DNA of 59,339 nt, filler included, from Asterionella formosa (taxonomy: Eukaryota), in NCBI GenBank assembly GCA_002256025.1. It is 7 parts of 7 records of this genome, joined end to end, with 100 filler letters (N's around TTAATTAATTAA, not from the genome) between each part and the next. Parts side by side here need not be neighbours in the genome. Positions count along the whole stretch, not along the records: positions 42,479 to 50,860 come from NKIB01012258.1; positions 50,961 to 59,339 come from NKIB01012261.1; 5 more parts are not named here. The stretch is one strand, 5' to 3'. Position 1 is the first letter of the stretch. Each line of letters begins with the position of its first letter. Below, in pieces: positions 288 to 59,339 of the stretch. Made by a program: the position numbers and the translations under genes. Below the pieces are notes generated by a model that worked only from the letters and a program-made list of their open reading frames with translations, had not been told where the DNA came from and made no database searches.

Positions 288-316
288 GTTAAAACACTTA
301 AGTCCGTTTATAAACG

Positions 317-8791: not shown

Positions 8792-8798
8792 GGTGAAC

Positions 8799-33898: not shown

Positions 33899-33998
33899 NN
33901 NNNNNNNNNNNNNNNNNNNNNNNNNNNNNNNNNNNNNNNNNNTTAATTAATTAANNNNNNNNNNNNNNNNNNNNNNNNNNNNNNNNNNNNNNNNNNNN

Positions 33999-37691: not shown

Positions 37692-40046
37692 ATGCACCAT
37701 CGTCAGATCATTCCAAGAAAGAAGGAGAAACTGAAACGAAAGTATAATGTTGCCATTCTCATTAGGATCCTTCTGCTCATTTTGCTGTTGATTTCCATCG
37801 TTGGTATCATTATCTTATACATCATTATCAATCACTCCACCATCATTCCATCGTCATCATTATCATCTGATGGCGATCGTGTGTATCCAAAGAAGAACCA
37901 TCCATTACATGATATTGCAAATAATGAAAATGGAAATGCTAATTCTAATTTTAATTCTAATACTATTCAAACGATCAACCAACAACTGAACCAAGAAGAA
38001 AAAGAACATACAGAACAACAGGAACAACAACTTGACAACACACTTCGAGCTTTTTTAGAACCCATCCATCTCGACGACTGGACGATCCTTCCTCTTCCTG
38101 TTCGTACAACAACCGCCAAGGATTTGAAACAACTGGACTTTTCTGTGTTGTCATGTAAGAAACTTGCAGAGCAATGGCCAGTCAACAACGATTCCATCAT
38201 ACATCAAGATGCATTCCTACCATGGATACATGATGTATTCCCAAATGCACAGGGGACTCAATTGCAATTCGTTGCACAGAATAAACGACGATGTCATACA
38301 GGAACAACAACGGAAGAAATGCAACTATTGAAACACAATCAACCACAAGTGGCACTCTTTCAAGGAGTCAGCGTCAAACGAATTGTTATCAATCATGACA
38401 AGAAAACTAAGAATGCTACTACTTCAACTACAACTACCACTATCAGTACTGACGAGGAAAGATTTCAATTGGTACCTCATGACGAAGCAGATCCAGATGG
38501 AATGGACACTCGATTCATTTGTCGCTTCAAGCCTTCCAATCAAATAACACTCAGTCAACACAATATCAATTACGACTACGCGGCATATCGGAAAGGACAT
38601 ACAGAAACGTTTACTGAAAAAGGACGTACTGATATTAAATCCATTCATACATCACAATTAGTCTTTTACTGTCCCATTCCGGAAAATTTACAACCTTTAG
38701 TCAAGACTGGGGAGTCAGTACAGAATGATCAAGCAACACTTTTTGTGGATCTTATTCCCATTCGGACACCTCCCCGATATAGTGCTCCCAATTCATACTT
38801 ACCACCTCGGTACAAGGAATTTCAAGAAACAAATACACACAAACGATTTCATCCAAAGACAGCATGGGGAGATGCACATGTATTGCCACTCATTCAAGAT
38901 AGTGGACGATGGGAAAATATTCCAATTTGCAAACCAACCCACTTGACATTTCCTGAATCCAAACCACTACCATCCATTGATACGACGACACAAAAACGAC
39001 ACCGATTGGTGGCTTGTGTTTGGGCATCCTCGGGGTATGCTACTCGTGGAGGGCGTTTCGGGATACATGATGGACAACGACGATTGAGAGAATGGATACA
39101 TTTCAATCAATTGGTGGGATTTCAACATTTTTATATTTATGACAATTCTGTGGCACATTCCAATCAAACTCTCCAATCTGTCACTGATGACTATCCAGAC
39201 ATTACAACAAGAATTGTATGGCCAAGTAAAGTTTGCAATAACAACAAGAACAATGTGGACAGCCCTGGTGAACGATCGTCACAATATGCTGCGGAAAGTT
39301 CATGTCGATTACGATTCGGACCACATGTAGAATGGATTGGCCAATTTGATATTGATGAGTATTTGGTCCCCATGGGAGATTACACAACTGTCCCACAATT
39401 GTTGGATACATTGGATTCACAAGGCAAAAAGATTATTAGCTTTGCTTCTTGGCGGGCCTGGCCAAGACGAGATTTGATTGTCCCTCCTGTTCCCATACAT
39501 GACAATGCATCAATATGTGCTGATCCTCGTCCATGCTTTCATTGTACTGTACCACCCAATCGTACCATTTTGCAAACATACAATTGTGATCGTTTTCAAG
39601 GACAAAAACAAAAAAGTATGCCAGCAGAAAAGCAACTATATCGACCTGAGTATGTACTACAGCACTTTGTTCATTATTCTACAGTCACTGTGTTGTCCAT
39701 GTACAATAAGGAAGAAACATTGGCAGCTGGATTAGTGTGGAAGAATCATATCAGTGTCGATCCATTGTCTCGATTTTCTGATGAAACCAAGGAGGGAACA
39801 ATGTTACATACCAAAGCCATGGCAACTCAGGATACAGCTGGATGGTTGGATACATGTACTGGCAAGTCAACATGGGGACTCTGTCGCATTGGAAATCCAT
39901 GGCCTCCACCCGACCCCAAAATACCAAATGCAACCAAGGATGAATTGGGATGGTTGTACAATTGTTATGTCAATCACAAGATTGATGATTACTATGTTCC
40001 AAAATTGGAAAAAAGTCTCATGGACAAAATTGGTCAATTGTCCTGA
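37692..40046 (+). CDS. Type II membrane glycosyltransferase family 92-like protein
   Basis: N-terminal TM helix, LREWIHFNQLVGFQHFYIYDNS and the DxD motif WIGQFDIDEYLVP. Confidence 0.82.
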   Translation: MHHRQIIPRKKEKLKRKYNVAILIRILLLILLLISIVGIIILYIIINHSTIIPSSSLSSDGDRVYPKKNHPLHDIANNENGNANSNFNSNTIQTINQQLNQEEKEHTEQQEQQLDNTLRAFLEPIHLDDWTILPLPVRTTTAKDLKQLDFSVLSCKKLAEQWPVNNDSIIHQDAFLPWIHDVFPNAQGTQLQFVAQNKRRCHTGTTTEEMQLLKHNQPQVALFQGVSVKRIVINHDKKTKNATTSTTTTTISTDEERFQLVPHDEADPDGMDTRFICRFKPSNQITLSQHNINYDYAAYRKGHTETFTEKGRTDIKSIHTSQLVFYCPIPENLQPLVKTGESVQNDQATLFVDLIPIRTPPRYSAPNSYLPPRYKEFQETNTHKRFHPKTAWGDAHVLPLIQDSGRWENIPICKPTHLTFPESKPLPSIDTTTQKRHRLVACVWASSGYATRGGRFGIHDGQRRLREWIHFNQLVGFQHFYIYDNSVAHSNQTLQSVTDDYPDITTRIVWPSKVCNNNKNNVDSPGERSSQYAAESSCRLRFGPHVEWIGQFDIDEYLVPMGDYTTVPQLLDTLDSQGKKIISFASWRAWPRRDLIVPPVPIHDNASICADPRPCFHCTVPPNRTILQTYNCDRFQGQKQKSMPAEKQLYRPEYVLQHFVHYSTVTVLSMYNKEETLAAGLVWKNHISVDPLSRFSDETKEGTMLHTKAMATQDTAGWLDTCTGKSTWGLCRIGNPWPPPDPKIPNATKDELGWLYNCYVNHKIDDYYVPKLEKSLMDKIGQLS

Positions 40047-41045
40047 ACAGTATTATTGGTAGTTACTGTAAGTATTAGTGATGTAGAAGCATGCAAATTT
40101 GTAGAAATGAAATGAACTCTATCACATTCATGCTTGCTTGTTGGAGATGGTAGACTCACATTTTAGAAAAGTCATAGTAAATTCCAATAAAGTTTTGGCT
40201 ATGTTATATTTGATACTGTACAAGGAAGACTACCAGTACAGTGGTGGTAGACAACTATATTTACAAACATGGAGGGAGAGACCTATCACGTGTAGTGGGC
40301 AACATAGNNNNNNNNNNNNNNNNNNNNNNNNNNNNNNNNNNNNNNNNNNNNNNNNNNNNNNNNNNNNNNNNNNNNNNNNNNNNNNNNNNNNNNNNNNNNN
40401 NNNNNNNNNNNNNNNNNNNNNNNNNNNNNNNNNNNNNNNNNNNNNNNNNNNNNNNNNNNNNNNNNNNNNNNNNNNNNNNNNNNNNNNNNNNNNNNNNNNN
40501 NNNNNNNNNNNNNNNNNNNNNNNNNNNNNNNNNNNNNNNNNNNNNNNNNNNNNNNNNNNNNNNNNNNNNNNNNNNNNNNNNNNNNNNNNNNNNNNNNNNN
40601 NNNNNNNNNNNNNNNNNNNNNNNNNNNNNNNNNNNNNNNNNNNNNNNNNNNNNNNNNNNNNNNNNNNNNNNNNNNNNNNNNNNNNNNNNNNNNNNNNNNN
40701 NNNNNNNNNNNNNNNNNNNNNNNNNNNNNNNNNNNNNNNNNNNNNNNNNNNNNNNNNNNNNNNNNNNNNNNNNNNNNNNNNNNNNNNNNNNNNNNNNNNN
40801 NNNNNNNNNNNNNNNNNNNNNNNNNNNNNNNNNNNNNNNNNNNNNNNNNNNNNNNNNNNNNNNNNNNNNNNNNNNNNNNNNNNNNNNNNNNNNNNNNNNN
40901 NNNNNNNNNNNNNNNNNNNNNNNNNNNNNNNNNNNNNNNNNNNNNNNNNNNNNNNNNNNNNNNNNNNNNNNNNNNNNNNNNNNNNNNNNNNNNNNNNNNN
41001 NNNNNNNNNNNNNNNNNNNNNNNNNNNNNNNNNNNNNNNNNNNNN

Positions 41046-41157
41046 AGTTACGTGAGAGTGACCCAGCCCGCGGGAAGGAGTATGGACCTTTTGCTCCATG
41101 GCTTTGATTTGTTTTGTTCCACCACCCGCCGAATTTCTGCTCTCGGCGGCGGCTCAT
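41046..41157 (-). CDS. Possible 5' end of a gene running into the N gap
   Basis: ATG-initiated open frame MSRRREQKFGGWWNK..., divergent from the DCC1-like gene across a GGTACC-containing spacer. Confidence 0.3.
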
Positions 41158-41927
41158 GACGTATCAGTATACCGGTATGTATGTAATGGTAAGTATCATT
41201 CGAATGATAGATGGTCAGGCAGCACGCATGATTTAATATGTTGACTACATAACGGTTGGGTCAACCGGTACCTGGTTACCTGGTACCGGAACTAATTGAC
41301 AGATATTCTTATGATATATACTCTTACCGGTATATCGATATTCATAAATATATTTGCTTTCGTCGCCGACCACGGCCACAAGAAGACTGCATCGTCATGT
41401 ATTAAAAGCAGAAGGCAGAATTACTGCACAACCTGTCTCAATCCAACGTACGTATGTGTAGAGAGTTATGGAGAACATGTAGTATACCGGTAGTACCTGG
41501 TACTTTGGTGAAGCGCTGGCTGGCAATGTTTGATTTGGTCATGCCGCTAGACGGGGGATTCCGAGGTCACAGGTACGCACCGCTGAAAAGGAAACACACC
41601 ACACGGTATGTCAAGATATACTACCGGTACATAGGAATGAAGCAAGAAACTATTATACTCGAACGAGAGCACAGCAATTTTCCCATATGCACAGCATGTA
41701 GATTTTTCTTTTCGAGAAACATAAAACTGACTGCGGCAGTGCAGAAAGTGATGACCACCAATTTGAACCAGTCTGCCGAGATTCTCACTCTTGTATTTCA
41801 CAATAATAATCTTCTATTCAGTGAATCCTCCCCACCACTCTGTTGTCAACAAAACAAGCAATTGAGCAAGAAAATAAGGAAGCTACTTAGCAAGCTAGCA
41901 CATCGCAATCAGAAATAACAAACCACG

Positions 41928-42378
41928 ATGAAGTATTCAACATTCTACTTTTCCACGATTCTATCGTCCCTGCTAGTTATCACCGGCCACTCCTTGACCA
42001 CACCGCGAGTGACGTTGCCATCATGGACAGCCACATCTTCGATGTTGTCGGCATCAGTGTCAGTGACGGACAAGGAGTTTTCTGGATTTGGGGTGACTTG
42101 GGATTGGGAGCAAGTGACAGCACAAGTCTTTCAAGACGATAAACGACCCATCATTCTCTTTGATGGTGTATGCAATTTGTGCAATGGTGGAGTCAATTTT
42201 GCTTTGGATCATGATGCTAAAGGTGAGTGTGCAGGGAGAATATATTGTATATTTTGTAATCAGACTCCTCTCATTCAAACCAAATTACAATCATAGCTAC
42301 CTTTCGATTCGTTTCACTTCAATCCAAAGTGGGCCAATCTCTCTTAATTCGAAGTGGTCGCAATCCATCGGACATTTC
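41928..42378 (+). CDS. DCC1-like thiol-disulfide oxidoreductase (DUF393), plastid-type presequence, intron 42223-42296, 3'-truncated
   Basis: PIILFDGVCNLCNGGVNF (DxxCxxC). After splicing it continues ATFRFVSLQSKVGQSLL. Confidence 0.88.
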
Positions 42379-43989
42379 NNNNNNNNNNNNNNNNNNNNNN
42401 NNNNNNNNNNNNNNNNNNNNNNTTAATTAATTAANNNNNNNNNNNNNNNNNNNNNNNNNNNNNNNNNNNNNNNNNNNNCATATTTGTATTACTCTATGTA
42501 TCTAATGATGATGATCCCCTGATCATATTTTTTCAATTTATCATATAGCACAATAATTATCATTGTAAATAAAATTGTAACTGTTTCGGCTATTCATTTA
42601 CAATTATTAGTAAAATAAGAAAATTTTAAAGTATGCATTTATTGAAACTCGAATGAAATGGAGTGTTGAGTTGCACTGGTGCCCATATGGGCCCCAAGGG
42701 AATGACTAGTGAAGGTGAGTCCATTGAGGGAGTCATAGGCGGGGGGGGGTTGCAGACTGGGAAACAAATGTAAAGAAGGCAAGCAAGGGAAAGCATCCAG
42801 GTCGTAGAGGAGTCAAAAGTATGTGTAGAGCAGCCAGTATAGGGAAAGAGAGAGCAAAGACAAATGCCAATCAAGAAGTAGAAAGCAAATATGAAAATTG
42901 CATGGCGATTTGGGAGAGTTGTTTTAAATGAGGGTCCAGAAGTGGAAGAATCAATGAAAGTGGTAGCCTGATGATGAAGAAATAAGATGAGAGCAAAGGA
43001 AGGGTCTTGGGAGATGCAGACAGAATACAGCATGGCAAACTGTATTGCCATTTGTGTGAAAAAAATTGAGAATCCTGGCAGCAGGCAATTGCCAGGATGA
43101 AATGTAGGACGAAAGAGCTATGTGAGAGCAAACAAATGGTTAAGTGGACTGAAAGAAGTGCTGTTATTGTATTTGGTTGGTTGAAGCTAGGTTAGCAGCG
43201 GGCTTCCTTGCAGCAGTACTGTCGAGGGAATTAGCGGCGATGTCATTTGGATTAGATGCATCAGACGAGTGCCTTGTACTTGCGGACTGAAGCGGCGATT
43301 GGGGATGTTTGAAGGGAGGTCAAGGGTGGCTGAATGGTTCAGCACACAACATGATACACATCTGGATACCACAACAATGAACGCAACATTGAACTGCATT
43401 GCAACATCAGCCAATCACTTCATAAATAGCATTTATTATAGAACATTCTACTACTGTTGTAGTGAGAACTTATCCTATCCGACTAGTGTAATAAATAAAT
43501 AGATCACATAGTCGAATATAAGATCTATCTGTGCGTGTTTTAGAATTGAAATAAAAGGATGACTACATTAAGTTAAGATTATGATCAAATGCTGTTTAAA
43601 TTAGGTACCGTTACTAAAAACCACTATGATGCAGTCAGAAGACCATGGTTTCATCATGTACGGTGATTTACTTGTCCTATTAATACAATCAATAAATGCA
43701 TAGATCATATAGTCGAATAAGGGATGTATCTGTAGTATAGAATAGAAATAAAAGTATGATTACATAAGCAAAATGAAGATAAAAGTACTGTCGTGATATA
43801 CACTGTAGACCATGATACCACCACCATGAGTTACTATCAACGATGTACTTACCATCTACGATTTATAGGATTAAAGAGTGGGTCGTCGGGACAGCACGAA
43901 ATATTACGCCGATGTAGGGGATTAATTTGGTCACTGACTTGTACTAACAATAGTAGGTACACGAATTGATATTGAAAATATTCAAAAAG

Positions 43990-44310
43990 TAGATCAGGTT
44001 GTGGAAAACAATAAACTTATTCAGCATTGAATATTTTCGAATTATGTAAACGTTAAATTGATGATATTATACACAAGATGGTAACTAAGAATTCTTTGAA
44101 TGATGCAAATGTTCAACTGTATATATATATTCATAAATTTACAAATTTTTTATAGATATAAACATGGCTACTACATCTGGAATCGCGTGTACTTACATGT
44201 TCCTCTTCATGCATACTTCGTGAAATGAAAGATCAAAACACATGATGAGGAAAACTGAATTGACACTACAGCACAAAGTGATACCTTGTGGCTTCGATGG
44301 ATTGAATAGG
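43990..44310. repeat. Dispersed AT-rich repeat, homologous (inverted) to 55360-55690
   Basis: Shared GTGGAAAACAAT...GCATTGAATATTTTCGA, ATTTACAAATTTT, CTTCGTGAAA-GAAA and GTGGCTTCGA. Confidence 0.65.
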
Positions 44311-45670
44311 AAATGTAAAAGGAATCAAGTTATGTACTACGTCAAGGGCAAATGCCAAGATGATTGCTGGTTGGGTTCACAAACACTAAATGATTCAATG
44401 ACTCATTTTGCATATGGTGGCTGGGAAACCACCAGCAATGTAGACAAAAGAATTGGTAAGTGCTCTTGTTAGATCAATTCACACCTTTTAGACCAAAACT
44501 GCACATACATGTTTATCTTTTAGTATAATGTTAAACAAGCATTATTTATAATTTATAATTGCTGGATGACTGCTTTATTGATGTATATTTATGCGATATT
44601 CAACTGACACATTTTTTTCAGAAATATGAGTCAGTTACTTCGATATGTGGTAAGCGAAGATAGAATAGAAGTGCATGTTTTAGTGTAACCAAAACATGAC
44701 TAACAAGTAATTGTTTCTCATTGTTAGTATAGTTAGGACATCAAAATGGATCAAACAACAGAATAGTGGGCGAACTCAGAATCAGACTAAATGGAAAGGG
44801 GGAATGCAAGCGCTTACAAAGGGTGAAACGAATGCAATCAGTGAGATAGAAGCATACAAAAAAATTTGTTGCTACTTGATATATAGAAACATATAAATCC
44901 TCTCTATAATAAGCATCTCAATTATTCGACAATAAAGAAGCATGTCAAATAAATGGGCATTGCATGTCCACCTCTATTAATCACTCAAAATATCAATCCT
45001 CCACTCATAGGATCCCATTATTTTATCATAGTTGAGAAATAGACATATCAGTATACAAGTGCAAGACAGTAAGTCTTCACCCTCTGTCATGCCTTACCTT
45101 CAGTATGCATTAATACAGTAGTAACTGATGGCATTTCTTATTTTAATGCTCTAAGTGAGGGAAACCAACCTGATATCAGTCAAGATATCAGTAGTTTATA
45201 AATGAAAAATTAGGACAAGCGTTGATAACAAAGAAGTCTACGTTATTATTGTGAGTGTGTAAACCATCAAACACACTCCTACTAATCTCACCAAATGTTG
45301 GAAGAATCAATGCCAGCAGTGAAGACCAGAACATAACCTTCATATACCTGGCTCCAGTTCCGACAAAAGAAACTGGCAAAGCCAACACTTCCAAGACCCC
45401 CATCCATGCAGACCAAAGGCTCCAACGAATCCATCGCTAAGCATGGACATGCCCTCAACCATCACACAGCCAAACCTCAGACCATCACCATTTGCTCGGA
45501 TGCCTATGATCAACTCGAATCCAATTGTGGCGCAACGAAACCCGGATAATCCGATATTCACACACAACGGAGTATATGAGAGCACACAAATGAAGGAGCC
45601 AAAGGGACCTGGTACCGGTATACCAAACGGCAACAAATTGACACACATTAATAAATTGTTCGCATGCACG

Positions 45671-47278
45671 ATGGTTGTGTCGACAACACCGTCGCCTCGC
45701 GGCAGGATGATGTCACCATCGCCATCCCCATCCCCTCGAATGGTTCTGAACTCTCCAAGAGGAAACCGGAGATCTCATTCTTGTGGATGGAGAGTTGCTG
45801 CACTAGCCCGGTATGGACCCTTTTCTTTCCTCCTTTTTGCAGCCTACCTTTCTGTTTCTCATCTAAGATCGCAAATACGATTCGGTGCCTTTCTTCACGA
45901 TGATTCAACAGATATTGATTACGATGCAGAGATTATAGACCTTCCAAATTCAAATGGTGCAGGCTTCGTATCACCCTTTGATCCACCTCCCATCGACCCC
46001 GCAACTGAAGCAGCCAAGGCTTTGAAAAGCTACTCTCCCGCCCTTCATCCCATTCTTGATCCTGCCGTCATTACTCCTGATAGTACAAAGCCCTTGTCCG
46101 TCAGGTTTCTCACTGGATCAAACAAGGCGGTCACGTCGGAGACAAGAATGTTGCTCGATGCCATTGAGCGATCGAAATATCTAAAACTCGTGTCCATATC
46201 GTTTCTCGGTCGGCCTCCTACGGTGGATATATTGTACGTCAATGATATAGAAAAATCTAAAGCTCCTGTAATATGGATGGTGGATTTTCTTTCCATAGGA
46301 AGGGACTGCCACGCATTGGAAACCTTGGTGAAGCATGTCAAAGCGTTGGATGGAGCGTCGACGCATCTACAATTGATCCTGTTAGACTACAGTGCAAGTT
46401 GGGAGAATCCATCGTGCCCCAATTTGGAACAATTAGTCCCAAATATTAGACTTGCGAAACGAGGCATTGTAAAAGATCGTCATTGGGACAAAAGTTGGGT
46501 GAAAGTGGGAAAAATCGCACCTAACCTTTCGACGTTTACTGGTGGACCAGCATTGTACATGCCGCATGCTGTCAGACAAGTCTTTGTCGACCAGATAAAA
46601 CTTGCTCATCCATACAAATTGAAAAGATCTACCGATGTTATTCACTTTTGGCGCATGGGAAACAACTCTCACTTCACTCATTTGCGAGACACAGTCAGCA
46701 GTATTGTTTCGTCGATGCAGGGAACAATGGTAGGTACTCACAGGATTCAAGCATTGGTGAAGACTTTTGGAAAGAGCAAAGATATGGATATCAACAGAGT
46801 GCATTCGCAGTACGTTGAAGAAACCTTGAAAAGTAAAATTATTGTCGTTGCACAAAGAGATGAATATGAAGATCATTATCGATTGATGGAATCATTGGCG
46901 AGTGGGGCCATGGTGATGACAGATGTTATGCTTGGATTACCATCGGGCTTTAAAGACAAGGAAAATATTATCGTATATGATAGCGCCGAATCACTTCGGC
47001 AACTGCTAATCTTCTATTTAAATCCAAAGAATGCAGGGAAACGACGTAGAATTGCCCAGAAGGGTTGGGAACTTGCAATGAGTAAACATCGATCATGGCA
47101 CAGAGTCGAAGAACTGTTATTCGGAAAGCCCATTTCAAAAGGCAGGAGAATATTTTCTTTTAAAGCACCCGAGAAAAGGAAACGAAGCAAGGACGGACAA
47201 GAGCACCAGTTTGATTTGGAAGAAACCGTAATATTCAGCGATGTGACTGACAAGGCGAGCAAGGAAGATGATGATTAA
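45671..47278 (+). CDS. Membrane-anchored glycosyltransferase-like protein (C-terminal Glyco_trans_1_2/CgeB-like domain)
   Basis: TM at YGPFSFLLFAAYLSV, plus SKIIVVAQRDEYEDHYRLMESLASGAMVMTD...RRRIAQKGWELAMSKHRSWHRVEELL. The start could be upstream (45443). Confidence 0.8.
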   Translation: MVVSTTPSPRGRMMSPSPSPSPRMVLNSPRGNRRSHSCGWRVAALARYGPFSFLLFAAYLSVSHLRSQIRFGAFLHDDSTDIDYDAEIIDLPNSNGAGFVSPFDPPPIDPATEAAKALKSYSPALHPILDPAVITPDSTKPLSVRFLTGSNKAVTSETRMLLDAIERSKYLKLVSISFLGRPPTVDILYVNDIEKSKAPVIWMVDFLSIGRDCHALETLVKHVKALDGASTHLQLILLDYSASWENPSCPNLEQLVPNIRLAKRGIVKDRHWDKSWVKVGKIAPNLSTFTGGPALYMPHAVRQVFVDQIKLAHPYKLKRSTDVIHFWRMGNNSHFTHLRDTVSSIVSSMQGTMVGTHRIQALVKTFGKSKDMDINRVHSQYVEETLKSKIIVVAQRDEYEDHYRLMESLASGAMVMTDVMLGLPSGFKDKENIIVYDSAESLRQLLIFYLNPKNAGKRRRIAQKGWELAMSKHRSWHRVEELLFGKPISKGRRIFSFKAPEKRKRSKDGQEHQFDLEETVIFSDVTDKASKEDDD

Positions 47279-47657
47279 AGGTTCAATTGTCAACCCTTTC
47301 AACATTGCATCGACCAGCATTTATTTTCTGGTCTGTCGAAGGAGATTTTTTCCGCATATAATGGATAGGTCTGTCAAGGAGGGTTGTCTTGGCACTCTCT
47401 ATGAATTGGAGAAGCAACACGACAAGACTCCCCTATTCAGTCTCAAGAAGCCAATCTATACCGACAACAGTTAATTGATACTTTCAGAAAAAAGGAGAGT
47501 CCCACATAATTTTTTTGAGTGGATAGTTTTAAAGTAATATAGCTCTGGCAATTCTCCTTTTTTTATACAAAAACACACTATATACAACAATTGAAGTATG
47601 AGGTTCGTCACGAGTTTCTTGCCATATACACGAGTAATTTCCTTAGTTGTTTAATCC

Positions 47658-48878
47658 TCATTCGAAATAGCATTCTTCAGTGTCAACCCCATGCCAAATG
47701 CAACCAAATTCGTCACCAGAGAGTTCTTCTTCGATCGTTTCCGATGTCAACTCGAAGCAATGCGCAGCAAAGTCTTTCAAGATGCCAACATCATCTTCGG
47801 CCGTAGGAGGATCTTCCCATGTCTTACCCTTCAGGGAAGTAGCACCACTGTTACGCAGCATCTTCAAAGCCAATTCTGGCGATGGTCGCCCGAAGAAGAT
47901 CTGATGCTCAATTGGAACCCAAGCAAAGCTGAAGTACTCTTGGCCAATGACAATGAGCTGACCTTCCATCCATTGGTTGTTCTTAAAGCCGTCCTCTGCA
48001 ACTTGACCAAGACCAATGTGTCTCGGTAGCTCCTTAGTTCCCCACTTTTGAGCAGCCTTGTCAGTCAAGACAATTGGTTGAAGAGCCTTTTTCACTTGTG
48101 TCTTTCCTCCGATTCGCTTGGGGGGAACAGGTGAAAGGTCAGCTTGGAAAGTAATTTCTCCGAGAGGGACGTTCTTGTCACCCGTTACTTTGTATGCGAT
48201 TAACGTATCCCCGGAATACGTAACATTGATCATTTCATAGCCATGATTGCCATACCTAGATAAGCGTTGGTTGTTAATGGTGGACGAGATTGATGAGCTG
48301 ATGAAACGGAAACAAATGAAGAGAGGAAGGTCAACTTACTTGCCGACCCAAAGTCCTTCAAGGTTAAACTGAGGCAGGCAACTCCTCGCATTCAGAGCCT
48401 TTATCTTGTGCTCTTCGGCAGCATTGATCTCGCCTTTCATTTTTGCGATCTCCATTTCCTCCAGAGCCAACTGATACACCAATTCGGGATCCCGGCTCTC
48501 TATCTTCAGAAGCGAGTCCCGGATCGCATTCTCAACGTCTCGCTTGCCGCTACCAATCGCCGCAACAAGCTCGGAGCTCAATTTTGCCATGGAAGCTCGT
48601 AGTGTCCACAATTCGTCACCGTACTTGGCGAATTGGACACGATTTCGGCTGTCCTTATCCTTGCGCTGGCGACGAACATCAGTCTCCTTCACGGGCTCGA
48701 GGTTGAAGAACTCTGCCTTGCGGCGCAGCTTCTCGCCATCTGTTGAGCCATCCGACGACAAGGGCGAAAACGAGCGCGTCCATGATGTACGTCTGTGTTT
48801 GGCAGAGAGAAATGCATCTGTGCTCTCAGCAAAGAAAAGAACAGTTCCAGCGATGACTAATTGCGAGACGGCAAACAT
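47658..48878 (-). CDS. Plastid-targeted DUF3506 (EXECUTER C-terminal / cyclin D1-binding-like) protein, intron 48256-48339
   Basis: MFAVSQLVIAGTVLFFAESTDA/FL presequence. Spliced GLWVGKYGNHGYEMINV...AYKVTGDKNVPLGEITF...GQVAEDGFKNNQWMEGQL. Confidence 0.85.
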
Positions 48879-49467
48879 GATGAAGGCAACGGCAGGGAGT
48901 TCCTCGGTTGGGTTGGGGGATCTTTGAATGACTTGACGTTGACAATGGAGATTATACAAGGACCCTGTTGCAAGACCCTCAACGTTGTTGAATTGATACA
49001 GGCAGAACTGATGAGAAAGTTGTCAAGCTACCCTATTTTTATGTAACCACAGAATAATCATCATATTTCTGTCCTGCACTGGTGATGCATGAGCGACGAG
49101 AAATTCTAACCTCCTTGGCACAGACGTCATAAATCATCATTGACTTCTTTTCTGTCCTACATAACATGATGACCTCATCGGAAGTCAACCCACGTATGCT
49201 AGACGGTATTTCGACTCCTTCGACCTTCCGGATACAAATTCGACCACGTCGTGAATGGTACAGGTACCTGGTATGGTAGCTGGTACCAGGGTACCTGGCA
49301 CTCCGGAGTACCATACCTGGTACCAGGCACTTTACATACCGCTAAGACGGTAAGACTACCGTACCAGGTACCAGGTACCTGGTGGTACCGGTACTACCGG
49401 TGCTACCGGTAGGCAAAAGTGCCATTCTTTCATGCTGAGCAAGAGCTACATACCGCCCAGGTACCAG

Positions 49468-49555
49468 CACGTTGCAGTAATTGTGCTGAAACTAAAACTT
49501 TAGGTATCTTTATCTGATATTAAATTATTTATTTAAGCAAAATGACCGCAACTAG
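49468..49555. mobile_element. 88-bp MITE with CAG target-site duplication
   Basis: GGTAC-CAG|CACGTTGCAGTAATTGTGCT...AGCAAAATGACCGCAACTAG|CAG-GTACC. Confidence 0.75.
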
Positions 49556-49778
49556 CAGGTACCAGGGCACCTGGTACCGTGTTCGGAAACTCTGACGAGG
49601 AGGACAACTCGACTTCGAACTCCTCCTGGGAAGGTCTATTTCCAGACCATCAGTACCGGTACCAGTTACTCCCTCACCAGGTACCAGGTACTAGGTACCC
49701 CACTATGTAGTTGCAAGTGTTCCGGCACCTGGTACCACGTAGCTGGTACCTGGTTCAAATGGGGGTACCAGGTACCAG

Positions 49779-49866
49779 CAAGTTGCGGTCATTTTGCTTA
49801 AACTAACATTTTAATCTCGGATAAAGATAGCTAAATGCTTAGTTTCAGCAAAATTACCGCGACTTG
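49779..49866. mobile_element. 88-bp MITE, inverted relative to 49468-49555
   Basis: GGTAC-CAG|CAAGTTGCGGTCATTTTGCT...AGCAAAATTACCGCGACTTG|cc-CAG-GTACC. Confidence 0.75.
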
Positions 49867-49904
49867 CCCAGGTACCTTGGTACTACCTGGTACCAGGGTA
49901 CCAG

Positions 49905-50621
49905 CAAGTTACGGTCATTTTGCCAATGAATACCGGCAAACAGATAACGTGGCGACAGACAGACACTCAATTTCAACTCCATGCAACAGCAAAATGACAT
50001 GGACATACTACTAGTATGTTCTTTATACTGGTCCATTCAGAGGCATTCTTCCTAACAATCCATGTTGATGATATACAAACGCCACATATTGTCATCAAGT
50101 AGCCAAAATCTACAACATCATTGGCTGAAAACATTGATTGATTTATAAAGCATGATTTATCTGTTTACAATATGGATATCAATTGCCAGCATGATGTTGA
50201 CATTATTACAACTACCAGTACCAGTAAATGTGTTCCAGGGGGATGCATCATGAATAGCTAGCTATATGCATTCCATATATATCAAAGAGATATAGTTTAT
50301 ATACAGCCCTAGATACTATCATTTTAGTCATTTCAAACTTGACACATAGTAAGTCCAGTCATTACTGTAGATGTTGGTAAATGTTTTCCATGTATTTTTT
50401 TCACTACTGAACCCAACAGAATGTTGTTCACTAGTAAAACCCCAATCTTAGTTTGATTGGGGGAATGAGTTTCACCCTAAAATAGTTCCAGCTGGAAAGA
50501 ATTGAAAATGATCATGCCGCAAATCAAAGATAACCATTGTTCGAGTTTATATTACTTTTAGGATTGGATTGTCATGCGTGAATATCCGCAATGTCGATAA
50601 CGGAAAATTTACCGCAACTTG
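49905..50621. mobile_element. 717-bp non-autonomous DNA transposon with the same TIRs and CAG duplication
   Basis: GGTAC-CAG|CAAGTTACGGTCATTTTGCC...GGAAAATTTACCGCAACTTG|CAG-GTAGC. Confidence 0.7.
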
Positions 50622-52063
50622 CAGGTAGCCTACTCCCTGTGTCTGATAACAGTTGCATCGATTTGCACCAAATCAAGTGCCGAGCAGCCTATTTTTAGGT
50701 TAGATTACATCGAAAACATATCCTTTTTCTAGTTGAGGGCGGGCTTACCCGAAAAAATACGTTTTAAATGAGTTACAGCCATAGACATAATTAAAAATTC
50801 TATTTCTGTAATTAAACTATTAAGATATAAATAAAGTAATCGAAATCAATTTAACATACANNNNNNNNNNNNNNNNNNNNNNNNNNNNNNNNNNNNNNNN
50901 NNNNTTAATTAATTAANNNNNNNNNNNNNNNNNNNNNNNNNNNNNNNNNNNNNNNNNNNNTCCTAACGAGCTCTACTCGTTCGACATACTCAGACACAAT
51001 AGGAGCATCACGCTGATGGAGGGCTGGGGAGAGTGTAGCATTGATATTCGCCATGTTTGATTTGTTCGTTGTGATTTGGTTCTTGTTAGAGGGAAGGCGC
51101 CATCAGCAAGAAGTGATGAAACGCCTTGTTCTCTTGAGTCCTGCTGCCTACCAGTAATACAGTACACATAACGGTATTAAACCTTTTGTTTCTATTGGGC
51201 GCTTCGAAGAATTTGTAACAAAACTAAATCACAAATATTCCATTGTGATTTGCTGTACCTGGTACCTGGTACCAGGTACCGTTGTGCACATGAAGCACTT
51301 GTCGTGACGGAGCGACATGATTTTTGCTCCTCTATGTTGCCTACGTGAATGTCATTAACCTTCTTTTTTTTGTTTAACGAATCTCAACTTTTTCTGATAC
51401 CGGTACCGGTAGTCGACTACCGGTAATCATTTAGTAATTCCAAATTCGTCGAATTGAATTCGTACCGGTAATTGCTTCTCTTTTTGTCTTGAGTTCAATA
51501 TATGTGCGTATAGTGTGGTATGGCTATCATATCCCTTAAATTACCGCGGTAAATACATACGGCACACCGGTTACAGGCTGGCTACGAATATGTGCTTTTC
51601 CCTCTAGACTATTTTGAAACACATCGAGCACTTGTCGTGACAGATAGGATTTTTGCTCCCCTATGTTGCCTATGGGAATGTCATGTAGCTTTTTATGTTT
51701 AGATGTGCGATTATTTTAGTTTCGCAATTGTATCTGATAGTCGACTAATGTAGCAGGCTTCTTCAAGACCCCTGTTTTTGATGTCGTCTGAACCTCAGAC
51801 TTGCTACCCTGATGGTATTTCACCATGTAAATGGCGTCTTACTGTTTGTTTATCATGAGAAATAGTAAAGATGTGTTGCTTTGTTGCTAGTCAAGAAGCA
51901 GCTAATGCGCTAGTCAACAGTAGGAATTCTATATTTGTAGAAGCTTTAACGGAAGTTAAGTGTCCATCATATTCATGCAATGATGCATAAGAAGTACCAA
52001 AAGGAAAGATAATGAAAGAAACTTGGCATCATGAAGAGGAAAAATAGAGGAGTCAATCTTGAA

Positions 52064-52745
52064 CTAAGAGATTTGACTATGTTGGGTATTTGCGTGTAGT
52101 GTAATGAGCGATGATAGTTCATCCCTCCTTGAGATTTCATGCCTTTTTTTGTTAATATTCTTCGATTTTTTCATTGTATTCTGATCGAGAAATTGTATTT
52201 TCCTGCCATTATGTAACACAGAATTTCTTTCCTTCCAGGCGCTGTCCATCAGGAGCCATATTCGTGTGATGGCCGTTTAGACCCAACTGTTGCATTCTGT
52301 TTTTGTTGGACTTGGCTGGATCTGTTGTGGCTCTTTTTACTGCACTTCGCCATCCTTTGCTTAAATATCCTTGTAAAGTCATTATCTGCCCATTTTGTTT
52401 TGTTGTTCTATTGCCTGACATACCGGGGGTATCCTTTTTCTGGTTGTATCCGACGTGCTTGGATTGAAACTTGGCTGAAATGGATCTTTTGTTAACAATA
52501 AAAGATGCTTCATGTACTCCAGCCATACCTGTGCTACTGTTTGTCCCACTTTTGATGATATATTGTCCCAGTCCACCAACTTTTCTCTTTGCTGGTCATA
52601 CTTTTTTTACGAAGTATGCTTTGTAGTTTTCTAGCTTGATATGTTGTCTCATATGTTCGGCTGAGTTTTTGTGGATCATTTTTCCTTGAATGAGTAGACT
52701 TGCTTGCATGGTCTGAAAATGTGTGATTCTTTGCTTTGGCCCACC
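52064..52745 (-). mobile_element. Degenerate non-LTR retrotransposon ORF2 C-terminal remnant
   Basis: VDWDNI, AIEQQNKMG, LQGYLSKGW and AWKERNSVLH fit the Q--IGW---G--S--W...W--RN--LH pattern of LINE C-termini. It has many stops and frameshifts. Confidence 0.6.
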
Positions 52746-52749
52746 AGTT

Positions 52750-53340
52750 GCAACCGACTTAGGATGGTTTCATACAGAGTCATGTTGACATGTGCCTCCT
52801 CTATAAGAAAAACATGTTGATTGTGGCATTTGTTGATGACATGGGAATTGCACAAACAATGCAAAAGAACAAGTCGATATGCTAAATGAAAGAATTGTAA
52901 AGGCAGGCTTTGAAATGACTCGTGAAGGAAGTTTCTCTGAATTTCTTGGTATAAAGTTTGTGAAGGACCCAGTGGAGAAAACCATAACACTCACTCAGTG
53001 TGGATTGATCAAGAAGATCATTGATGCAAGTGGCATGAGCAACTGCAATCCAAATTGTACCCCAGCTACACAGCTTGCACTCGGAAGTGATCCTGGCTGA
53101 TGGAGAAGAAAAGTCAGAATAATGAAGCTACACATCTATTGTTGGAATGCTCCTTTATCTTGCCACCAACACTCATCCTGACATTGCATTTGCAGTCAGC
53201 CAAGTTGCCCGATTCAATCACACACCAAAGCAAAGCTGTGCTACAGCAATCAAGACCATTGTCCATTTCCTCGATCGCACATCTGATAAAGGTACTATTG
53301 TTTGTCCACCTGGAAAATTGCAGCTTGATTGCAGTAGGCT
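52750..53340 (+). mobile_element. Degenerate Ty1/Copia RT fragment
   Basis: QSHVDMCLLYKKNMLIVAFVDD, GFEMTREGSFSEFLGIKF and VGMLLYLATNTHPDIAFAVSQVARF. Confidence 0.88.
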
Positions 53341-53660
53341 TGATAACTTCCAGCATCATTCTTGCAAAAATAATGGAAAACAACAAATAATTACATATTT
53401 TAGCAAAACCATACTTGTGAAACAAGCCCCCCCCCACCTTTCAACTGTAAAGCTTGCTTCTACGAATTGGCCGCAATTGCAGTACTTACTACCAGGCACT
53501 CTACCTACTGCCTGGCTAGCTTGGTGGACTGTCAGCTTCCTACACTTTGGGAAGGAATAACACGACTAGTACCCTGGTACCTGGTACCACACACCACAAA
53601 GTCCCATCATTTTCTTATTGGTAGTAATCGGGTTTACCAATATAATGATACACATGTAAT

Positions 53661-53741
53661 ACTAAGCAAAATATAAACAAGCGCTGAACATAACACAACA
53701 AAAGCATATGCCGCCAGATAGAAAAATACAGTTACCAATTG
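53661..53741. repeat. Direct repeat, second copy 58291-58379
   Basis: TAAGCAAAATATAAACAAGCGCTGAACA...AAATACAGTTACCAATTG occurs in both. Confidence 0.8.
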
Positions 53742-56088
53742 AAAGCTTGTTCCTCTGGCATTTGGCATTGATATGGCACTGTCTGGGGTAAAATACTGTG
53801 TGATTGGGTTGACATTTAAGAATCATTATATCTCCCCTGTTTGCTGTTGTTCTACAGTCATTGGTCAAGTCTCCACTATCTGCTGTCTTTCCACTTAGTT
53901 GTGCTAGTGTGATGAAGTAAGATAGGAGTGTTCAATATCCCCCCTCTTCTCCCAAGAGGGACGGTGAGCGCTGAGCCGACGAGGCAAGCAGAGTCCTTGG
54001 CTGTTGGGAGATAAAGTAAAGGAACAACGAAGTAAGGAAGGAAGAAATCCCCTTGTTAGGTTCTTGTGGGCGTTGTGAGCGTCTTTTTATACTCAGTACA
54101 GAGTAGAATGTGATGAGATGGGGGGCACAACAAATTAGAGCATGTATCCAATGGAAGTGGGTAGTGAGTTTTGCAACCATGACGCACAGGTGGCGGTCTG
54201 CAACAACACTGGAGCGCCACTATGGGCAGCAAAGGTCCGCCGGAAAATCGTCTGCAAATAAAAAGTATCATGCATATAGGATCAAGGGTATTGTACGCTA
54301 AGTGGCACAGGATTTTCCTATAGATGATAATTTTTGGATCAAAATTATGAGCAAGGTATCCTATAACTATGATGATTTATTAATATCTTACGGAACTTGA
54401 AGTATAATGATAATAAGAACATTATCATCACACAATGTATATCAACTGATCAACAACATTTCTCATGAATATCATAAGCGTGCTCATATTATTTTCACTT
54501 CTCATGATCGCCAAATGTAAATTATTACTACAATGCATCCTTAAATCAGCCAAACTCTATTCTATCATGTGAATTGTTTCATCACATATCTATCGTAAAC
54601 ATGATCATAATTCTAATCACAAGCATTGTTCAAAATAGATTAAATTGGATCGTAATTTAACTATCAAATTTAGCAATGCTATCTATGATTCTACAGGCCA
54701 GCAACCCAACGTTTCTCTCTCTACTTGGCTCAATGTATATTGTTCCTGTCTTGCCCTTTTTTCCTCTTTTCTGAATCTTGTGCCAAGCAGTGCTTCGTCT
54801 CTTTCTCTCCTTGCTGTTAGTTTCATTCTGAACTCGCCGACTATTCCGTTGTTTGATCGGTTTTATTGTCCTATGCAGTTACAGTAACAATGAAAAGGAA
54901 TGACTTGTTAGCTAGACATGCTACACTGACACCACAACATCACGCCATTCCATCGTATCTTCTCGCTTGCTTCACTTACCACAGCCAAATCAAAGCAAGT
55001 GATGCATAAGTCTGTAATAGTAAATTGTCAGTAAATTCTTGAATAAGTAAGTTTCAGGTTTCCAATGTTGCCAAATAAAACTTACCGAGGATTCATTTTC
55101 GTTAGCTTAATTTTGAGAGAAAATAAACGTGTCCGTCAGTTATGTTCCAACAGAAGTGAATAGGTCCAACGACAAGAGCACTTACCAATTTTGTTTTGTT
55201 TTGCATTGGTGCTCCGGAACAAGCGAAATGAGCTATTGAATCAACTGAGAAGAAAGGAAATGTGCGTTTAGTTTACAATTTGTTTTTGTCCTGCCTCCCA
55301 ACGATTGTCATCCAAGTACCACATTGATGGCTTCATTAACTTAAATATACTCCAACCTTCAAAGGCTCAATGTGTCGAAGCCACCATGTTTTTTGTTATT
55401 GCATAAACTTTCCTTTCTTGTCATGTGCTTTACTATGATGTTTCTTTTCACGAAGCAGGCATTGTTTGTTAACATGACAGAACGATTTCAAATATATTTG
55501 GCATGTATATAGTTATAAAATTTGTAAATATATAAAAATATCAAGTGTAGTACATTTATAAAATTCAGAGGCACTCTCAATATGGCACCACGTCTGGTAG
55601 CTAGCTATTGTTGAGATGATCATATTTGCATATAGATAATTCGAAAATATTCAATGCACCATATGTCCATTGTTTTCCACGACTTTGTGTACCAGTACTG
55701 TTTCTGAAATTTGTTTGCATCAATATTTTCTACGTCCGTTGGAACTAATTATTTACCGACAGACCATTAAATTGGTGTAAGTCACAACCCATTTGTATCA
55801 TTATTTATATGCAAGGATTTTGGTAGCTAATTAGCTATTTAAGCCCCTTTTTTGGCGAGAGTTCTTCATGTGTACATCATATGATCATAACATTTGATCA
55901 TATAAATACAGAGTACCAGTAGCAGGTAGGAAGTGATATACTGGGGGTAGTTGGAGTAGTAAGTGAGCAACAGAAAACCATATGTCCAGGACTGTTGCTA
56001 CTGCAACGGGACAGTAAATTATCATAGTTTCAGTATCGTATGATCATAAAATTGAAAGGGGATAGCGTGTTGAGAAAGAATTCTTACT

Positions 56089-56360
56089 TCATCCACAGGT
56101 CACTCAGACCTGTGCCCGGTGAGGCGCCCCGACTCCCATCACAGAGCCGAAGCAGTGTGAGACTTGCACTCACTAAAAAACCTTGGGATTCCCCAGTCTT
56201 GACCAGTACTCGGTCTGCCCTACACATCGGTGCGTTGGCCTGTGGAGGTGTGTGGGACCCCAGAAGCAGAGTGTAGCCCCCCTAACTGGGACCTGATTGT
56301 GTGAGCACAAAGTCTCACAGCGTTCAACTGACGCCCAACAAGGGTTGATTCCTGCTAGGC
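56089..56360 (-). mobile_element. Structured repeat element (copy B)
   Basis: Blocks shared with 24862-25155, including a covarying hairpin. Confidence 0.55.
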
Positions 56361-56537
56361 TGTCATTCACATTTGCGTCTGTCCCATACCTAACTACCCA
56401 ACAAATGGGCTGCTCCCTCTGTGGAACAGGTCCATTTGTGCTTGTGACTGGTGGCTTTGGTCTTGCCATCCTGCACACTGAGGGATCCCATAATTACCAT
56501 CTCTTACCCAAAATATAGGCACCATGTCCTAAGTTGA

Positions 56538-57535
56538 ATATATATATTAAGTAACATACTTTATCATTGATTTATTTATTTTCTATGATGTATTGATAAC
56601 ACTTGTGAACATATTTTATCATATTTTGTTATCATTGTATTTTTTTAACATAATAATTTTTTGATTAAGAATAGATCATAAACATTTTAAGAAATCATCA
56701 TAGTTCTATGATCAATGTATCACAGCTACGTGATATACTTTATTCAATATTACGTATCATAGTTTGGTGATGTATGCATCGATGTAACCCTATTGTGATA
56801 TCACATTATCATCTTATCAATCATTCAATGTTGATTGGGACCTGTATTCTGCATCGTACTACAGAGTATGATTTTATCATAACACGCACTTTAGTAGCTA
56901 AGTCACTAGTGTATAATGTACACAAGTCAACAGTGCACGTACTACACACATGCTAAGCAGGTTTGAGGCAACGGACAGTGGTTCCAACAAGCGAATGACG
57001 ATACAGGTACCAATTTTTCCAGCGGGAAACCACAATGATGAAGGACACTTGTCCCTCTATTGATGGTAACACGGACACCGGCTTTTCCAGGAGCAAACAA
57101 CCATGAAGTGAGCCACTTGTCGCTCTATTGATGGTAACATAGATGCGGACAAGTTCATTGGTGAATACAAGAACAACATGCCAATGAAAACAAGTCGACA
57201 GTGTGTGTACGCACATGCTAAGCAGGTTTGAGGCAATTGACAGTTCCAAGAAGCAAATGACGATGCGGATATCGAATTTTTCCTGCAGCAAACCACAATG
57301 ATTATGACAAATGATATTCGTCCCTCTATTGTTGGTGATATGGATACCGGGCGGGTTTTCCATGAGCAAACAATAATGAAGTGAGCCACTTGTCGCTCTA
57401 TTGATGGTAACAAAGATGCGGACAAGTTCAAAAGTGAATACAAGTACAGTATCCCAAATGCAGAAACGAGCAATTTGAAAAAGAAATTGTAATCAGAATC
57501 ATTCTATAACTATAACTATGTATACAGCAGTCTGT
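56538..57535. repeat. Second copy of the 30505-31410 dispersed repeat
   Basis: Colinear match that continues past the point where the other copy is interrupted by the Copia LTR. Confidence 0.9.
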
Positions 57536-59212
57536 TACATTTTCGTATCTCCTTCTATGGTGAATCTCAATGGAAGATGTAGTATCATGTGAGAATTGAA
57601 AATGTCAACAAAAACAAATAGAATGTGTTTGTTTACAAGTTGATTTGCAAGATTTCATGCTGGTGGTTGACGGAATGGATTTACTATTTGCGCTGTGTGC
57701 GGAAGCATTCCGAGTTTGAATGATTTCTTCTCTGTAAACTCTTACTTGAATGATTATGAACAAAGGTTCACTGCACATGACGATTACTCAAAGATATAAT
57801 GATCGCTTGACCAAAATTGAAGACGTCATTATCGCAAACAATCATTCCACTTGTCATTGCTAGTATTTCGTTGTTGTTACAAAAATCGGAGTGATGACAG
57901 ATGGAAATCACGAGCAAAATTACATTACTTGAACTGGTACATTATCCTACCAAGAAATTCAAATACAGGAATCTAATAGAAACAATACATATAATAATTT
58001 TATAAATTTAGTCAAAAGGGTTACTATTTAAAATACAAGGGCATTTATCAAAATTATTAGATGATACAACGAAAAATTATGATGAGATGATCACAATCCT
58101 ATGATGCATCATGGGAATATGATAGTTTTCATTTGCAGACAATGCCTTCAACAGCAAACTTATGGCGCACAACGTTTCAACATGTTGACGATTTGTATGC
58201 AGCAGCAATTGCTTCTGTAGGATGGCGAAGCCCTTCGCAGAAGTATGATGGTTCCAAGGCAAAGGAGCAGTAAGGTCTGCCTGATAAACTAGTAAGCAAA
58301 ATATAAACAAGCGCTGAACAAGAACATATCACGACGAAAACTTATGTCACCAGACACAGAGAAATACAGTTACCAATTGTTTATTTCTACTAATGTGTGC
58401 TCTATTAATTTATTGCATTCCTTGTTGGGTCAGCATCATACTGCAGGTAGTAGTATGCTGTCTGTCCTAAATCCATATATTGAAGTTTTGGCACATACAT
58501 CATACATATTGGACATATGTATCTTCCAACATACTACTGTTGATGTTCACCATTGAATGACTTTATCAGAGGTATGCTGCAATATTCCTCTGCTATGTAA
58601 CAACATTCTAGTGCTATTTCTATTCGCCAAAAGTTTCGGCGTGAGATTTGACTACTCTAGAATTTTGTCGATGCGGTGGGAAAAAATAGGAAAAATTCGA
58701 CTATTGATAAAAAATTTCTCAACCAAGTGACGTGTATTGATATTTTCAACTGCAATTGGCTTTGGTATTTGGTGGATGCGGTGGAGATCTCTGATATGCA
58801 AAGATTGATGATCACTAGCTTTGTACACGGTGCTACTAAATTACTAGTGCACTAGCTTCCACTACGGGTACCAGGTACGATTTAGCTCTGTATAGTAAGT
58901 ATCGTTGCTTCAGCTCGCTTGTCTGTGTGTTGGTCCAATTTCCTTATCGTCTCCTCGATTCCCACCTATGGTTTGGTTTCATATTTCATTTGATTGCAGT
59001 GTGCTTGCTCTACCGGTACCCTGGTACCTGGTACCAGTATATCGGGTAGTATCACCACGTTGCCTGTAGAAATCAACATCATCATCCTGATCTCTGTCTG
59101 CGCAATAACCGCTCTTGCCGACAAGCAATCTTCGTCCATCATTATGATTCGGAGTACCGTTACAAGGTAGAGACTCCTTGCATTGTTTACAACAATCGAT
59201 CCACTATTGATC

Positions 59213-59339
59213 ATGTCAGACCCCGATGATCTCTACACCCTCCGTGCTCAGTACTGGATGGGCCATTACCATCTGTGCCTGGATGAAGCCAAGACTGTCG
59301 CGAGACGTCCCATGTCGGCCGCACTGAAATTGGAGCGTG
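59213..59339 (+). CDS. COPE: Coatomer subunit epsilon, N-terminus (truncated by window end)
   Basis: MSDPDDLYTLRAQYWMGHYHLCLDEAKTVARRPMSAALKLER resembles the conserved D-L---R--F--G-Y---I-EA...ER start of epsilon-COP. Confidence 0.72.
   Translation, partial: MSDPDDLYTLRAQYWMGHYHLCLDEAKTVARRPMSAALKLER

Follow-up and report, generated by a model that had tools for sequence, protein, structure and literature searches.

Three elements with common ends lie in one heptamer tract

[quoted passage not shown] The window consists of seven unlinked scaffold pieces of 8,379-8,409 bases each; features on different pieces are unlinked. All three elements sit close to the right end of piece 6 (NKIB01012258.1) and represent three insertions, spread over less than 1.2 kb, in one tract of the degenerate heptamer GGTACCW (W, A or T), which runs upstream of a gene (Table 1).

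Direct reading of 49468-50621 confirmed the three elements of an original prediction made from this DNA, with a shared terminal inverted repeat (TIR) and a CAG at each border. The TIR CAAGTTGCGGTMATTTTGC has six matches in the window at up to three mismatches, compared to 0.05 expected from 100 shuffles. All six matches are ends of E1-E3, each of which deviates from it by 0-3 mismatches. E1 is 83-84% identical to E2, with an inverted-repeat match of 100 nt that is 83% complementary. As single-stranded DNA, E2 is predicted to form a near-perfect hairpin (-23.7 kcal/mol, z -8.7), and the predicted fold of E1 is weak (z -1.95). E3 has only its ends in common with the 88-bp copies: its interior is unrelated to them and has no match among the other fetched sequences, and none of its short open reading frames (ORFs) matches a Pfam family above the curated cut-off. 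An nhmmer profile built from six 88-bp copies detected no window copies beyond E1-E3.

The left flank reads GGTACCAG in all three elements. On the right, E1 is followed by CAGGTACC, E2 by ccCAGGTACC (CC plus CAGGTACC) and E3 by CAGGTAGC. Removal of an element together with one CAG was said to restore the target. This holds for E1, giving GGTACCAGGTACC, and for E3, giving GGTACCAGGTAGC, whereas for E2 the CC at 49867-49868 has to be removed too.

Table 1 Features of piece 6 around E1-E3 and layout of the window.
Feature	Position	Strand	Remark
E1, 88-bp MITE copy	49468..49555	-	inverted relative to E2, older
CAG left of E1, putative left copy of the target-site duplication	49465..49467		preceded by GGTAC
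CAG right of E1, putative right copy of the target-site duplication	49556..49558		followed by GTACC
E2, 88-bp MITE copy	49779..49866	+	near family consensus
CAG left of E2	49776..49778		direct reading
CC spacer (49867-49868), then CAG (49869-49871), right of E2	49867..49871		duplication does not abut the TIR
E3, 717-bp non-coding element	49905..50621	+	TIRs as in the family, 1 and 2 mismatches
CAG left of E3	49902..49904		direct reading
CAG right of E3	50622..50624		followed by GTAGC
Degenerate (GGTACCW)n heptamer tract	49256..49904		hosts all three insertions
Adjacent gene with two open frames, of which one has a Cyclin_D1_bind domain	47658..49022	-	tract and elements are located upstream of its 5' end
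Piece 1	1-8409
Piece 2	8510-16910
Piece 3	17011-25409
Piece 4	25510-33898
Piece 5	33999-42378
Piece 6	42479-50860
Piece 7	50961-59339
Linkers, N44-TTAATTAATTAA-N44	8410-8509, 16911-17010, 25410-25509, 33899-33998, 42379-42478, 50861-50960

The elements belong to a high-copy family

Public metagenome contigs were scanned with the 18-nt core of the TIR, which gave 59 loci (numbered L001 and so on). In our judgement, 19 belong to the family, based on a short eukaryote-like contig, a C before the match, a MITE-like continuation or nhmmer support past the TIR, and recurrence in the same few samples; L009, L032, L056 and some further loci were included chiefly for their TIR and contig type. The 19 loci collapse to 16 independent places, since L018, L030 and L050 are one locus and L022 and L046 another. 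Copies of 88 bp at L001, L003, L024 and L028a align to E2 without gaps at 92-94% identity. In other contigs (L007; L043/L028c) the family ends enclose differing interiors. Homology between copies begins and ends sharply at CAAGTT...AACTTG, and the TIR is common to all copies. For the comparison of ends and flanks we used 29 oriented ends, 18 from nine complete elements and 11 single ones (the boundary of L013R is ambiguous). The TIR starts with CAAGTT in all of them save the diverged ends of E1 (CACG, CTAG).

Contigs from four public runs, each from a different study, were placed on positions 48500-50860 (2.36 kb). Run X1 contributed 11,872 contigs, X4 1,339, X7 1,045 and X5 1,028, mostly over the elements and the tract. 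In X1, summed depth in the bin of E2 is 2.7 million compared to 559-837 in the lowest-depth neighbouring bins; this is a ratio of about 3,000-fold or more, in which summed depth does not stand for copy number in a strict sense. At single E2 positions, each alternative base is carried by 75-116 distinct contigs. In abundance, the family greatly exceeds its flanking sequence. The E2/E3 junction is spanned by contigs of X4 and X5, indicating that these insertions are common to several populations. The predicted MITE family is thus real and present in high copy number, with 16 independent metagenome places and thousands of contigs in four runs. Its members have the hallmarks of MITEs: small size (88, 88 and 717 bp for E1-E3), no coding capacity, common TIRs, a target-site duplication, described below, and dispersed high copy number.

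The near-perfect hairpin of E2 and the clustering of three copies could also be taken to mean that this is not a transposon at all, but a foldback repeat spread by recombination or by tandem duplication within tracts. We regard this as the least probable of the accounts considered. At least 16 flanking contexts, unrelated to one another, harbour copies, whose boundaries are sharp, shared and bordered by short repeats, and the same ends enclose unrelated interiors in E3, L007 and L043/L028c.

Three of the loci, L042, L044 and L032, share other dispersed repeats (70-83% identity) with window positions 15069-15355, 2490-2771 and 3614-3749, which points to the same or closely related organisms. 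In X1, summed contig depth is also 10-100 times that of the lowest-depth neighbouring bins at 50080-50237 and 50396-50553 (inside E3) and at 50633-50711 (to its right), suggesting that other dispersed repeats are located there. An inverted motif, CCCCAATC...GATTGGGG, at about 50440-50465 in E3 is found in L028 as well (about 700-740).

Insertions prefer an extended palindrome

Read outward from the TIR, the 29 flanks have G at -1 (28 ends), A or T at -2 (26), C at -3 (22), C at -4 (22), A at -5 (18), T at -6 (13), G at -7 (12) and G at -8 (13), and are flat beyond. Conservation therefore decays outward while the TIR stays perfect, in agreement with the proposal that GGTAC belongs to the target and not to the TIR. 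Some copies with 0-1 mismatches in the TIR have unrelated bases at -4 to -8 (L003, CCAATCTG; L042, CCCGCCTG; L028c, ATATCCGG). In a multiple alignment of five copies with their flanks, homology ends at the element ends, and the invariant bases near the ends are a G before, a C after and a G three bases after the element.

The opposite possibility, that GGTACCWG is a longer TIR and that target specificity is absent, is suggested by E1 and E2, where GGTACCWG and its reverse complement form borders like an extended inverted repeat. It is already largely refuted and highly improbable. Apart from the outward decay next to a perfect TIR, L003, L042, L028c, L056 and L009 lack GGTAC, and the tract flanks differ in length and register. 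An extended TIR also predicts that the central W is inverted between the two sides. What we observed is the opposite: W forms a direct repeat in eight of the nine complete copies (binomial p 0.02), and in 5 of 6 when spacer and offset cases are left aside (p 0.11).

Frequencies of the full motif and of its half-sites tell the same preference from another side. Exact GGTACCWG is present at 10 of the 29 ends, compared to 84 of 3,238 oriented CWG sites in the window (p 1.8e-9) and 98 of 1,516 CWG sites in the MITE-bearing loci (p 8e-6). At least one perfect GGTAC half-site adjoins 8/9 complete copies. Outside the element region, perfect half-sites occur at 53 of 1,570 CWG sites (3.4%; p 1.5e-11) and at 39 of 118 CCWGG sites (33%; p 9e-4). 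When the window copies are counted as one event, the proportion is 6/7 (p 1e-8 against CWG and 0.0065 against CCWGG). The enrichment over CCWGG indicates that the preference extends past CCWGG, as judged from this small sample. The extended palindromic target that had been predicted was therefore recovered as a strong preference for (GGT)ACCWGGT(ACC), with a sequence logo reaching at least to -6 in a small sample. Loose ends of paralogous copies in X1 and X5 have the consensus ...CCAGGTACC(N)T before the TIR, with a low agreement of 0.43-0.45. As controls for chance matches, we looked for the pattern of CWG plus C before the TIR in the 40 other metagenome matches and in 35 prokaryotic or viral matches, and found it in none (0/40 and 0/35); the TIR scans of prokaryotic genomes and viral contigs returned chance matches only. 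We consider it very probable that both the family and its target bias are real.

CWG is probably duplicated upon insertion

The original prediction included a 3-bp CWG target-site duplication. Among the nine complete copies, four (E1, E3, L007 and L028a) have CWG on both sides as an exact direct repeat abutting the TIRs. Two more have an exact repeat with two extra bases on one side (cc in E2, ct in L024). L003 contradicts the prediction, and on the whole CWG behaves mainly as a direct duplication. In our judgement the duplication is probably exactly CWG.

Two-nucleotide spacers, oriented GG, AG and TG, are located at 49867-49868 in E2, at L024:714-715 and at L018:527-528. All three adjoin the same end of the 88-bp element, the one with GGTAATTTTGCTGAAAC. 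They may reflect cleavage two bases outside the GGTAATTTTGCTGAAAC end, which would take with it the final two bases of the C-N-G duplication at the donor site. Another boundary that we considered, a 4-bp GTAC duplication with CWG as part of the element ends, was rejected, because the TIR would then have to be mismatched systematically and because L007, L003 and L001 do not fit it.

The explanation that we favour, with a probability of about 0.65, is that E1-E3 belong to a non-autonomous, cut-and-paste MITE family that is mobilised in trans, targets ACC-W-GGT palindromes and has CWG duplicated upon insertion. The core member would be a foldback of 88 bp whose TIR spans about 19-29 bp and starts with CAAGTTGCGGTMATTTTGC, and E3 would be a 717-bp relative sharing the ends only. 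An unseen transposase would mobilise the family in trans, pick a palindromic ACC-W-GGT core (at best GGTAC-CWG-GTACC) and make a 3-nt staggered cut, resulting in duplication of CWG. In the (GGTACCW)n tracts of intergenic DNA near genes, every unit junction would be such a target site, and in this way the tracts could act as landing pads that collect several insertions.

Several observations weigh against this explanation. The repeat is imperfect in the remaining three complete copies: L001 has TTG and CTG (one mismatch), L003 has CTG and CAG (one mismatch, in an inverted arrangement) and L018 is irregular (CTGtg ... CTTG). The G at -1 (28/29) is better conserved than the C at -3 (22/29), and the boundary may lie one base further out with a shorter duplication, which would give the same string on a palindromic site. 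No empty allele was found in the public-run contigs on 48500-50860 among the joints listed (15 of 115), where contig placement is a method from which the absence of an empty allele cannot be proven. These 15 of 115 joints are cross-matches between tracts or paralogous MITEs, and none cleanly skips an element plus 3 nt. All-against-all BLAST of the fetched loci revealed no paralogous or orthologous empty site, and the same-locus sets L018/L030/L050 and L022/L046 are all filled. DNA-transposase domains were absent from the 55 window ORFs of at least 110 aa, in which the sole mobile-element match is a copia-type RVT_2, as well as from 27 ORFs of MITE-bearing contigs and from E3. The TIR starts with CAAG and not with GGG, the usual, if not strict, start of TIRs in the NuwaI group discussed below. 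Finally, the sample comprises few copies, those of the window all lie in a single tract, the metagenome copies may span several related taxa, and family membership was assigned partly from TIR and contig type.

Some of these observations would equally suit an account with the same MITE family and the same target bias, in which something other than CWG is duplicated or the enzyme is of a kind unlike PIF/Harbinger. The element might end in G...C with only W (or some other length) duplicated, or the family might fall in a different superfamily that makes 3-bp duplications, or in an unclassified one. This account is unlikely, yet it is the strongest of the competitors. It draws on the nearly invariant G at -1 next to the less conserved C at -3, on the invariant G before and C after the five aligned copies, and on the fact that both boundary models predict the same sequence at a palindromic site. 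The CAAG start of the TIR, unlike the usual GGG of NuwaI, and the lack of a transposase in window ORFs, locus ORFs and E3 also speak for it. To our knowledge, however, no cut-and-paste superfamily with a 1-bp duplication has been described. Single ends with TTG (L048, L001) and CAA (L056) slightly favour the 3-bp model, since they are easier to reconcile with a 3-bp site that can be read from either of its sides than with a G fixed at the terminus. In addition, the combination of a W-centred, palindromic 3-bp duplication and an ACCWGGT core matches the zebrafish element Harbinger3_DR.

Insertion behaviour resembles known PIF/Harbinger elements

Tourist-type MITEs, which derive from PIF/Harbinger transposons, are small, carry TIRs, have a palindromic, W-centred 3-bp target-site duplication, reach high copy number and occur near genes. 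They duplicate TWA, whereas the family described here probably duplicates CWG and has an extended target that contains GC instead of being AT-rich. Micron in rice is a transposon that targets microsatellites. According to the original prediction, Harbinger3_DR duplicates CWG.

Harbinger3_DR, a zebrafish PIF/Harbinger element, integrates into the palindrome AAACACCWGGTCTTT (PMC3016246), and the duplication of PIF/Harbinger elements is TWA (PMC4482050). The Harbinger3_DR target and the site preferred here have the same ACC-W-GGT core and differ in the outer bases (AAAC...TCTTT in Harbinger3_DR, GGT...ACC here). Its host is a fish; here the host is a diatom, the target itself is a tract-forming repeat, and no transposase or Myb-like ORF is known for the family. 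The NuwaI group of the PIF/Harbinger-ISL2EU-Spy (PHIS) superfamily is defined by a 5'-CWG-3' target-site duplication (Han et al. 2015, PMC4482050). That survey describes NuwaI from 16 animal genomes only, with TIRs that usually start with GGG and autonomous copies of about 4.5 kb that have a DDE ORF and a Myb/SANT ORF (PMC4482050). The majority pattern here fits the CWG duplication that defines NuwaI, with L003 of the inverted type and a boundary that may be shifted by one base. Our family differs from NuwaI in having CAAG instead of GGG at the TIR start and in its diatom host, with no DDE or Myb/SANT ORF seen. Insertion into short tandem repeats has precedents too: MuTAnT, a Mutator-like element of Medicago, targets TA microsatellites (PMC4486113), and arrays of microsatellite-targeting transposons occur in guayule and rice (PMC5907723). 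Like E1-E3, these elements insert within a short tandem repeat with several copies per tract. The unit differs, being a TA microsatellite for MuTAnT and here the palindrome-containing 7-nt GGTACCW with a CWG junction.

These precedents in NuwaI (PMC4482050), Harbinger3_DR (PMC3016246) and the microsatellite-targeting transposons do not sustain the suggestion that E1-E3 represent an undescribed system. The behaviour is known; the novelty lies in the host lineage, in the TIR, in the outer bases of the target and in its being a tract-forming 7-nt repeat. Among the titles listed in searches for literature on diatom MITEs and Harbinger, none concerned this family.

The family most likely works in the manner of Harbinger3_DR and NuwaI elements. 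The chances appear about even that the enzyme is a CWG-duplicating transposase of the PIF/Harbinger superfamily, similar to NuwaI or Harbinger3_DR. No partner enzyme was seen, so the superfamily is a tentative assignment from insertion behaviour. L043 and L028c were examined as candidate ends of a longer element and rejected, since only about 85 bp are common, followed by unrelated DNA or a leucine-rich-repeat gene.

Transposons with a long specific target are rare and useful: they reveal the way in which DNA is read by a transposase or by its DNA-binding partner, and are candidate tools for site-directed integration. If the enzyme is similar to NuwaI or Harbinger3, the CWG-duplicating group would reach from animals to diatoms and the ACCWGGT core would count as an ancient and conserved target. 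In that case, the family would also provide many natural insertions for studying "safe-harbour" behaviour in gene-dense algal genomes.

Heptamer tracts and their genomic context

The motif GGTACCWGGTACC occurs 13 times in the window, with 0 expected. The original prediction spoke of tracts across this window; tracts do occur on at least four scaffolds that are unlinked (pieces 2, 3, 6 and 7), and the window is not a single locus. Among GGTACC neighbours at most 30 nt apart, 13 of 27 pairs in the window and 26 of 36 in the metagenome loci have a spacing of 7 nt with A or T in between. MITE copies at L007, L018, L028a, L041 and L043 abut at least two heptamer units.

Short tract pieces vary between otherwise similar sequences. 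The MITE of L030 contains a 13-bp insert of the TACCAGGTACCGG type (1690-1702) that is missing from L050 and L018, which represent the same locus. Pieces of 17-21 bp lie at the centre of the MITE copies of L018/L050 and L007. In piece 2, a 28-bp tract at about 9331-9358 in one arm of an inverted duplication is missing at the matching position of about 16524. Each of these variable pieces (13-28 bp) follows TA and starts with TACC(W)GGTA, and none has a TIR remnant. Tracts seem to arise by insertion-like events or by slippage.

The tracts had been proposed to form through cycles of MITE insertion and excision. This idea is not borne out, given the 7-nt spacing, the lack of TIR remnants in the variable pieces and the absence, in the window and the loci, of any CWG-CWG excision footprint between GGTAC and GTACC. 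A single CTGCAG-type palindrome, CTTACCTGCAGGTAAG at L043:460-475, has the form TTAC-CTG-CAG-GTAA and lies about 40 bp from a MITE end. It resembles what may remain after removal of an insertion of the L003 type (CTG...CAG), and may be due to chance.

The association could in principle run in reverse, with tracts that arise or expand beside and inside the MITEs, seeded by their flanks. The insert of L030, the central pieces of L018/L050 and L007, and the 28-bp tract in one arm only of a near-identical inverted duplication all fit such growth, and these inserts at TA sites leave a small chance that tracts grow around elements. Against this stand the copies outside tracts, which keep ACCWG or CWG at the junction (L003, L042, L009), and the duplication pattern, which suits insertion. 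Furthermore, most window tracts lack a MITE (pieces 2, 3 and 7), and three elements of differing ages and orientations in one tract suit repeated targeting. Reverse growth therefore seems quite improbable to us, and we prefer targeted insertion into existing palindromes.

A bolder version of targeted insertion would make (GGTACCW)n, instead of an ordinary microsatellite, a fast-turnover, insertion-like sequence class that arises de novo at TA sites, also within MITE copies, and serves as the landing pad of a CWG-duplicating, Harbinger/NuwaI-like lineage. The two would be a co-evolving pair upstream of diatom genes, and the lineage the first of the NuwaI type outside animals. We mention this as a speculative and rather doubtful extension.

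Four loci (in pieces 2, 3 and 6 and at L041) are suggestive of a promoter-proximal location of the tracts. Besides the tract of piece 6 (Table 1), the tract of piece 3 (18715-19041) lies between divergent ORFs, one of which encodes a pseudouridine synthase. At L041, tract and MITE are located about 120 bp upstream of a V-ATPase c-subunit ORF, and in piece 2 the tracts flank tRNA-Val genes. Heptamer tracts near genes are of interest in themselves; in the searchable literature on the 13-mer, on GGTACC heptanucleotide repeats and on GGTACC diatom promoter motifs we found no report of them.

The ends of piece 2 form an inverted duplication (8510-10725 and 15491-16910) with 316 nt at 99% identity followed by blocks at 83-99%. 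Its arms carry tRNA-Val(AAC) genes at 9750-9825, 10067-10140 and 16259-16334; these three were the only hits of an Rfam search and lie on a scaffold other than that of E1-E3. One arm has 14 GGTACC motifs and a 55-bp tandem repeat (8799-9018), and the other arm a single GGTACC. The duplication may represent either a genuine palindromic locus or an artefact of assembly.

Further features of the window

For piece 6, a fraction of 0.82-0.90 of the sampled words was present in runs that carry the label algae or freshwater metagenome or no label. A CCT-theta chaperonin ORF on the minus strand (35316-36884) has only diatoms among its named relatives, the nearest being the araphid pennates Thalassionema and Synedropsis at 65-66% identity. 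These matches point to a freshwater diatom as host, probably of the araphid pennate type. The copia-type reverse transcriptase ORF (RVT_2, E 6e-19) lies on the minus strand of piece 4 (32440-33702) and is a retrotransposon fragment. Simple repeats include a 38-nt run of G near a scaffold end (25005-25050) and tandem repeats with long units of 190, 273 and 148 bp at 22900-23475, 56943-57448 and 15854-16146, respectively.

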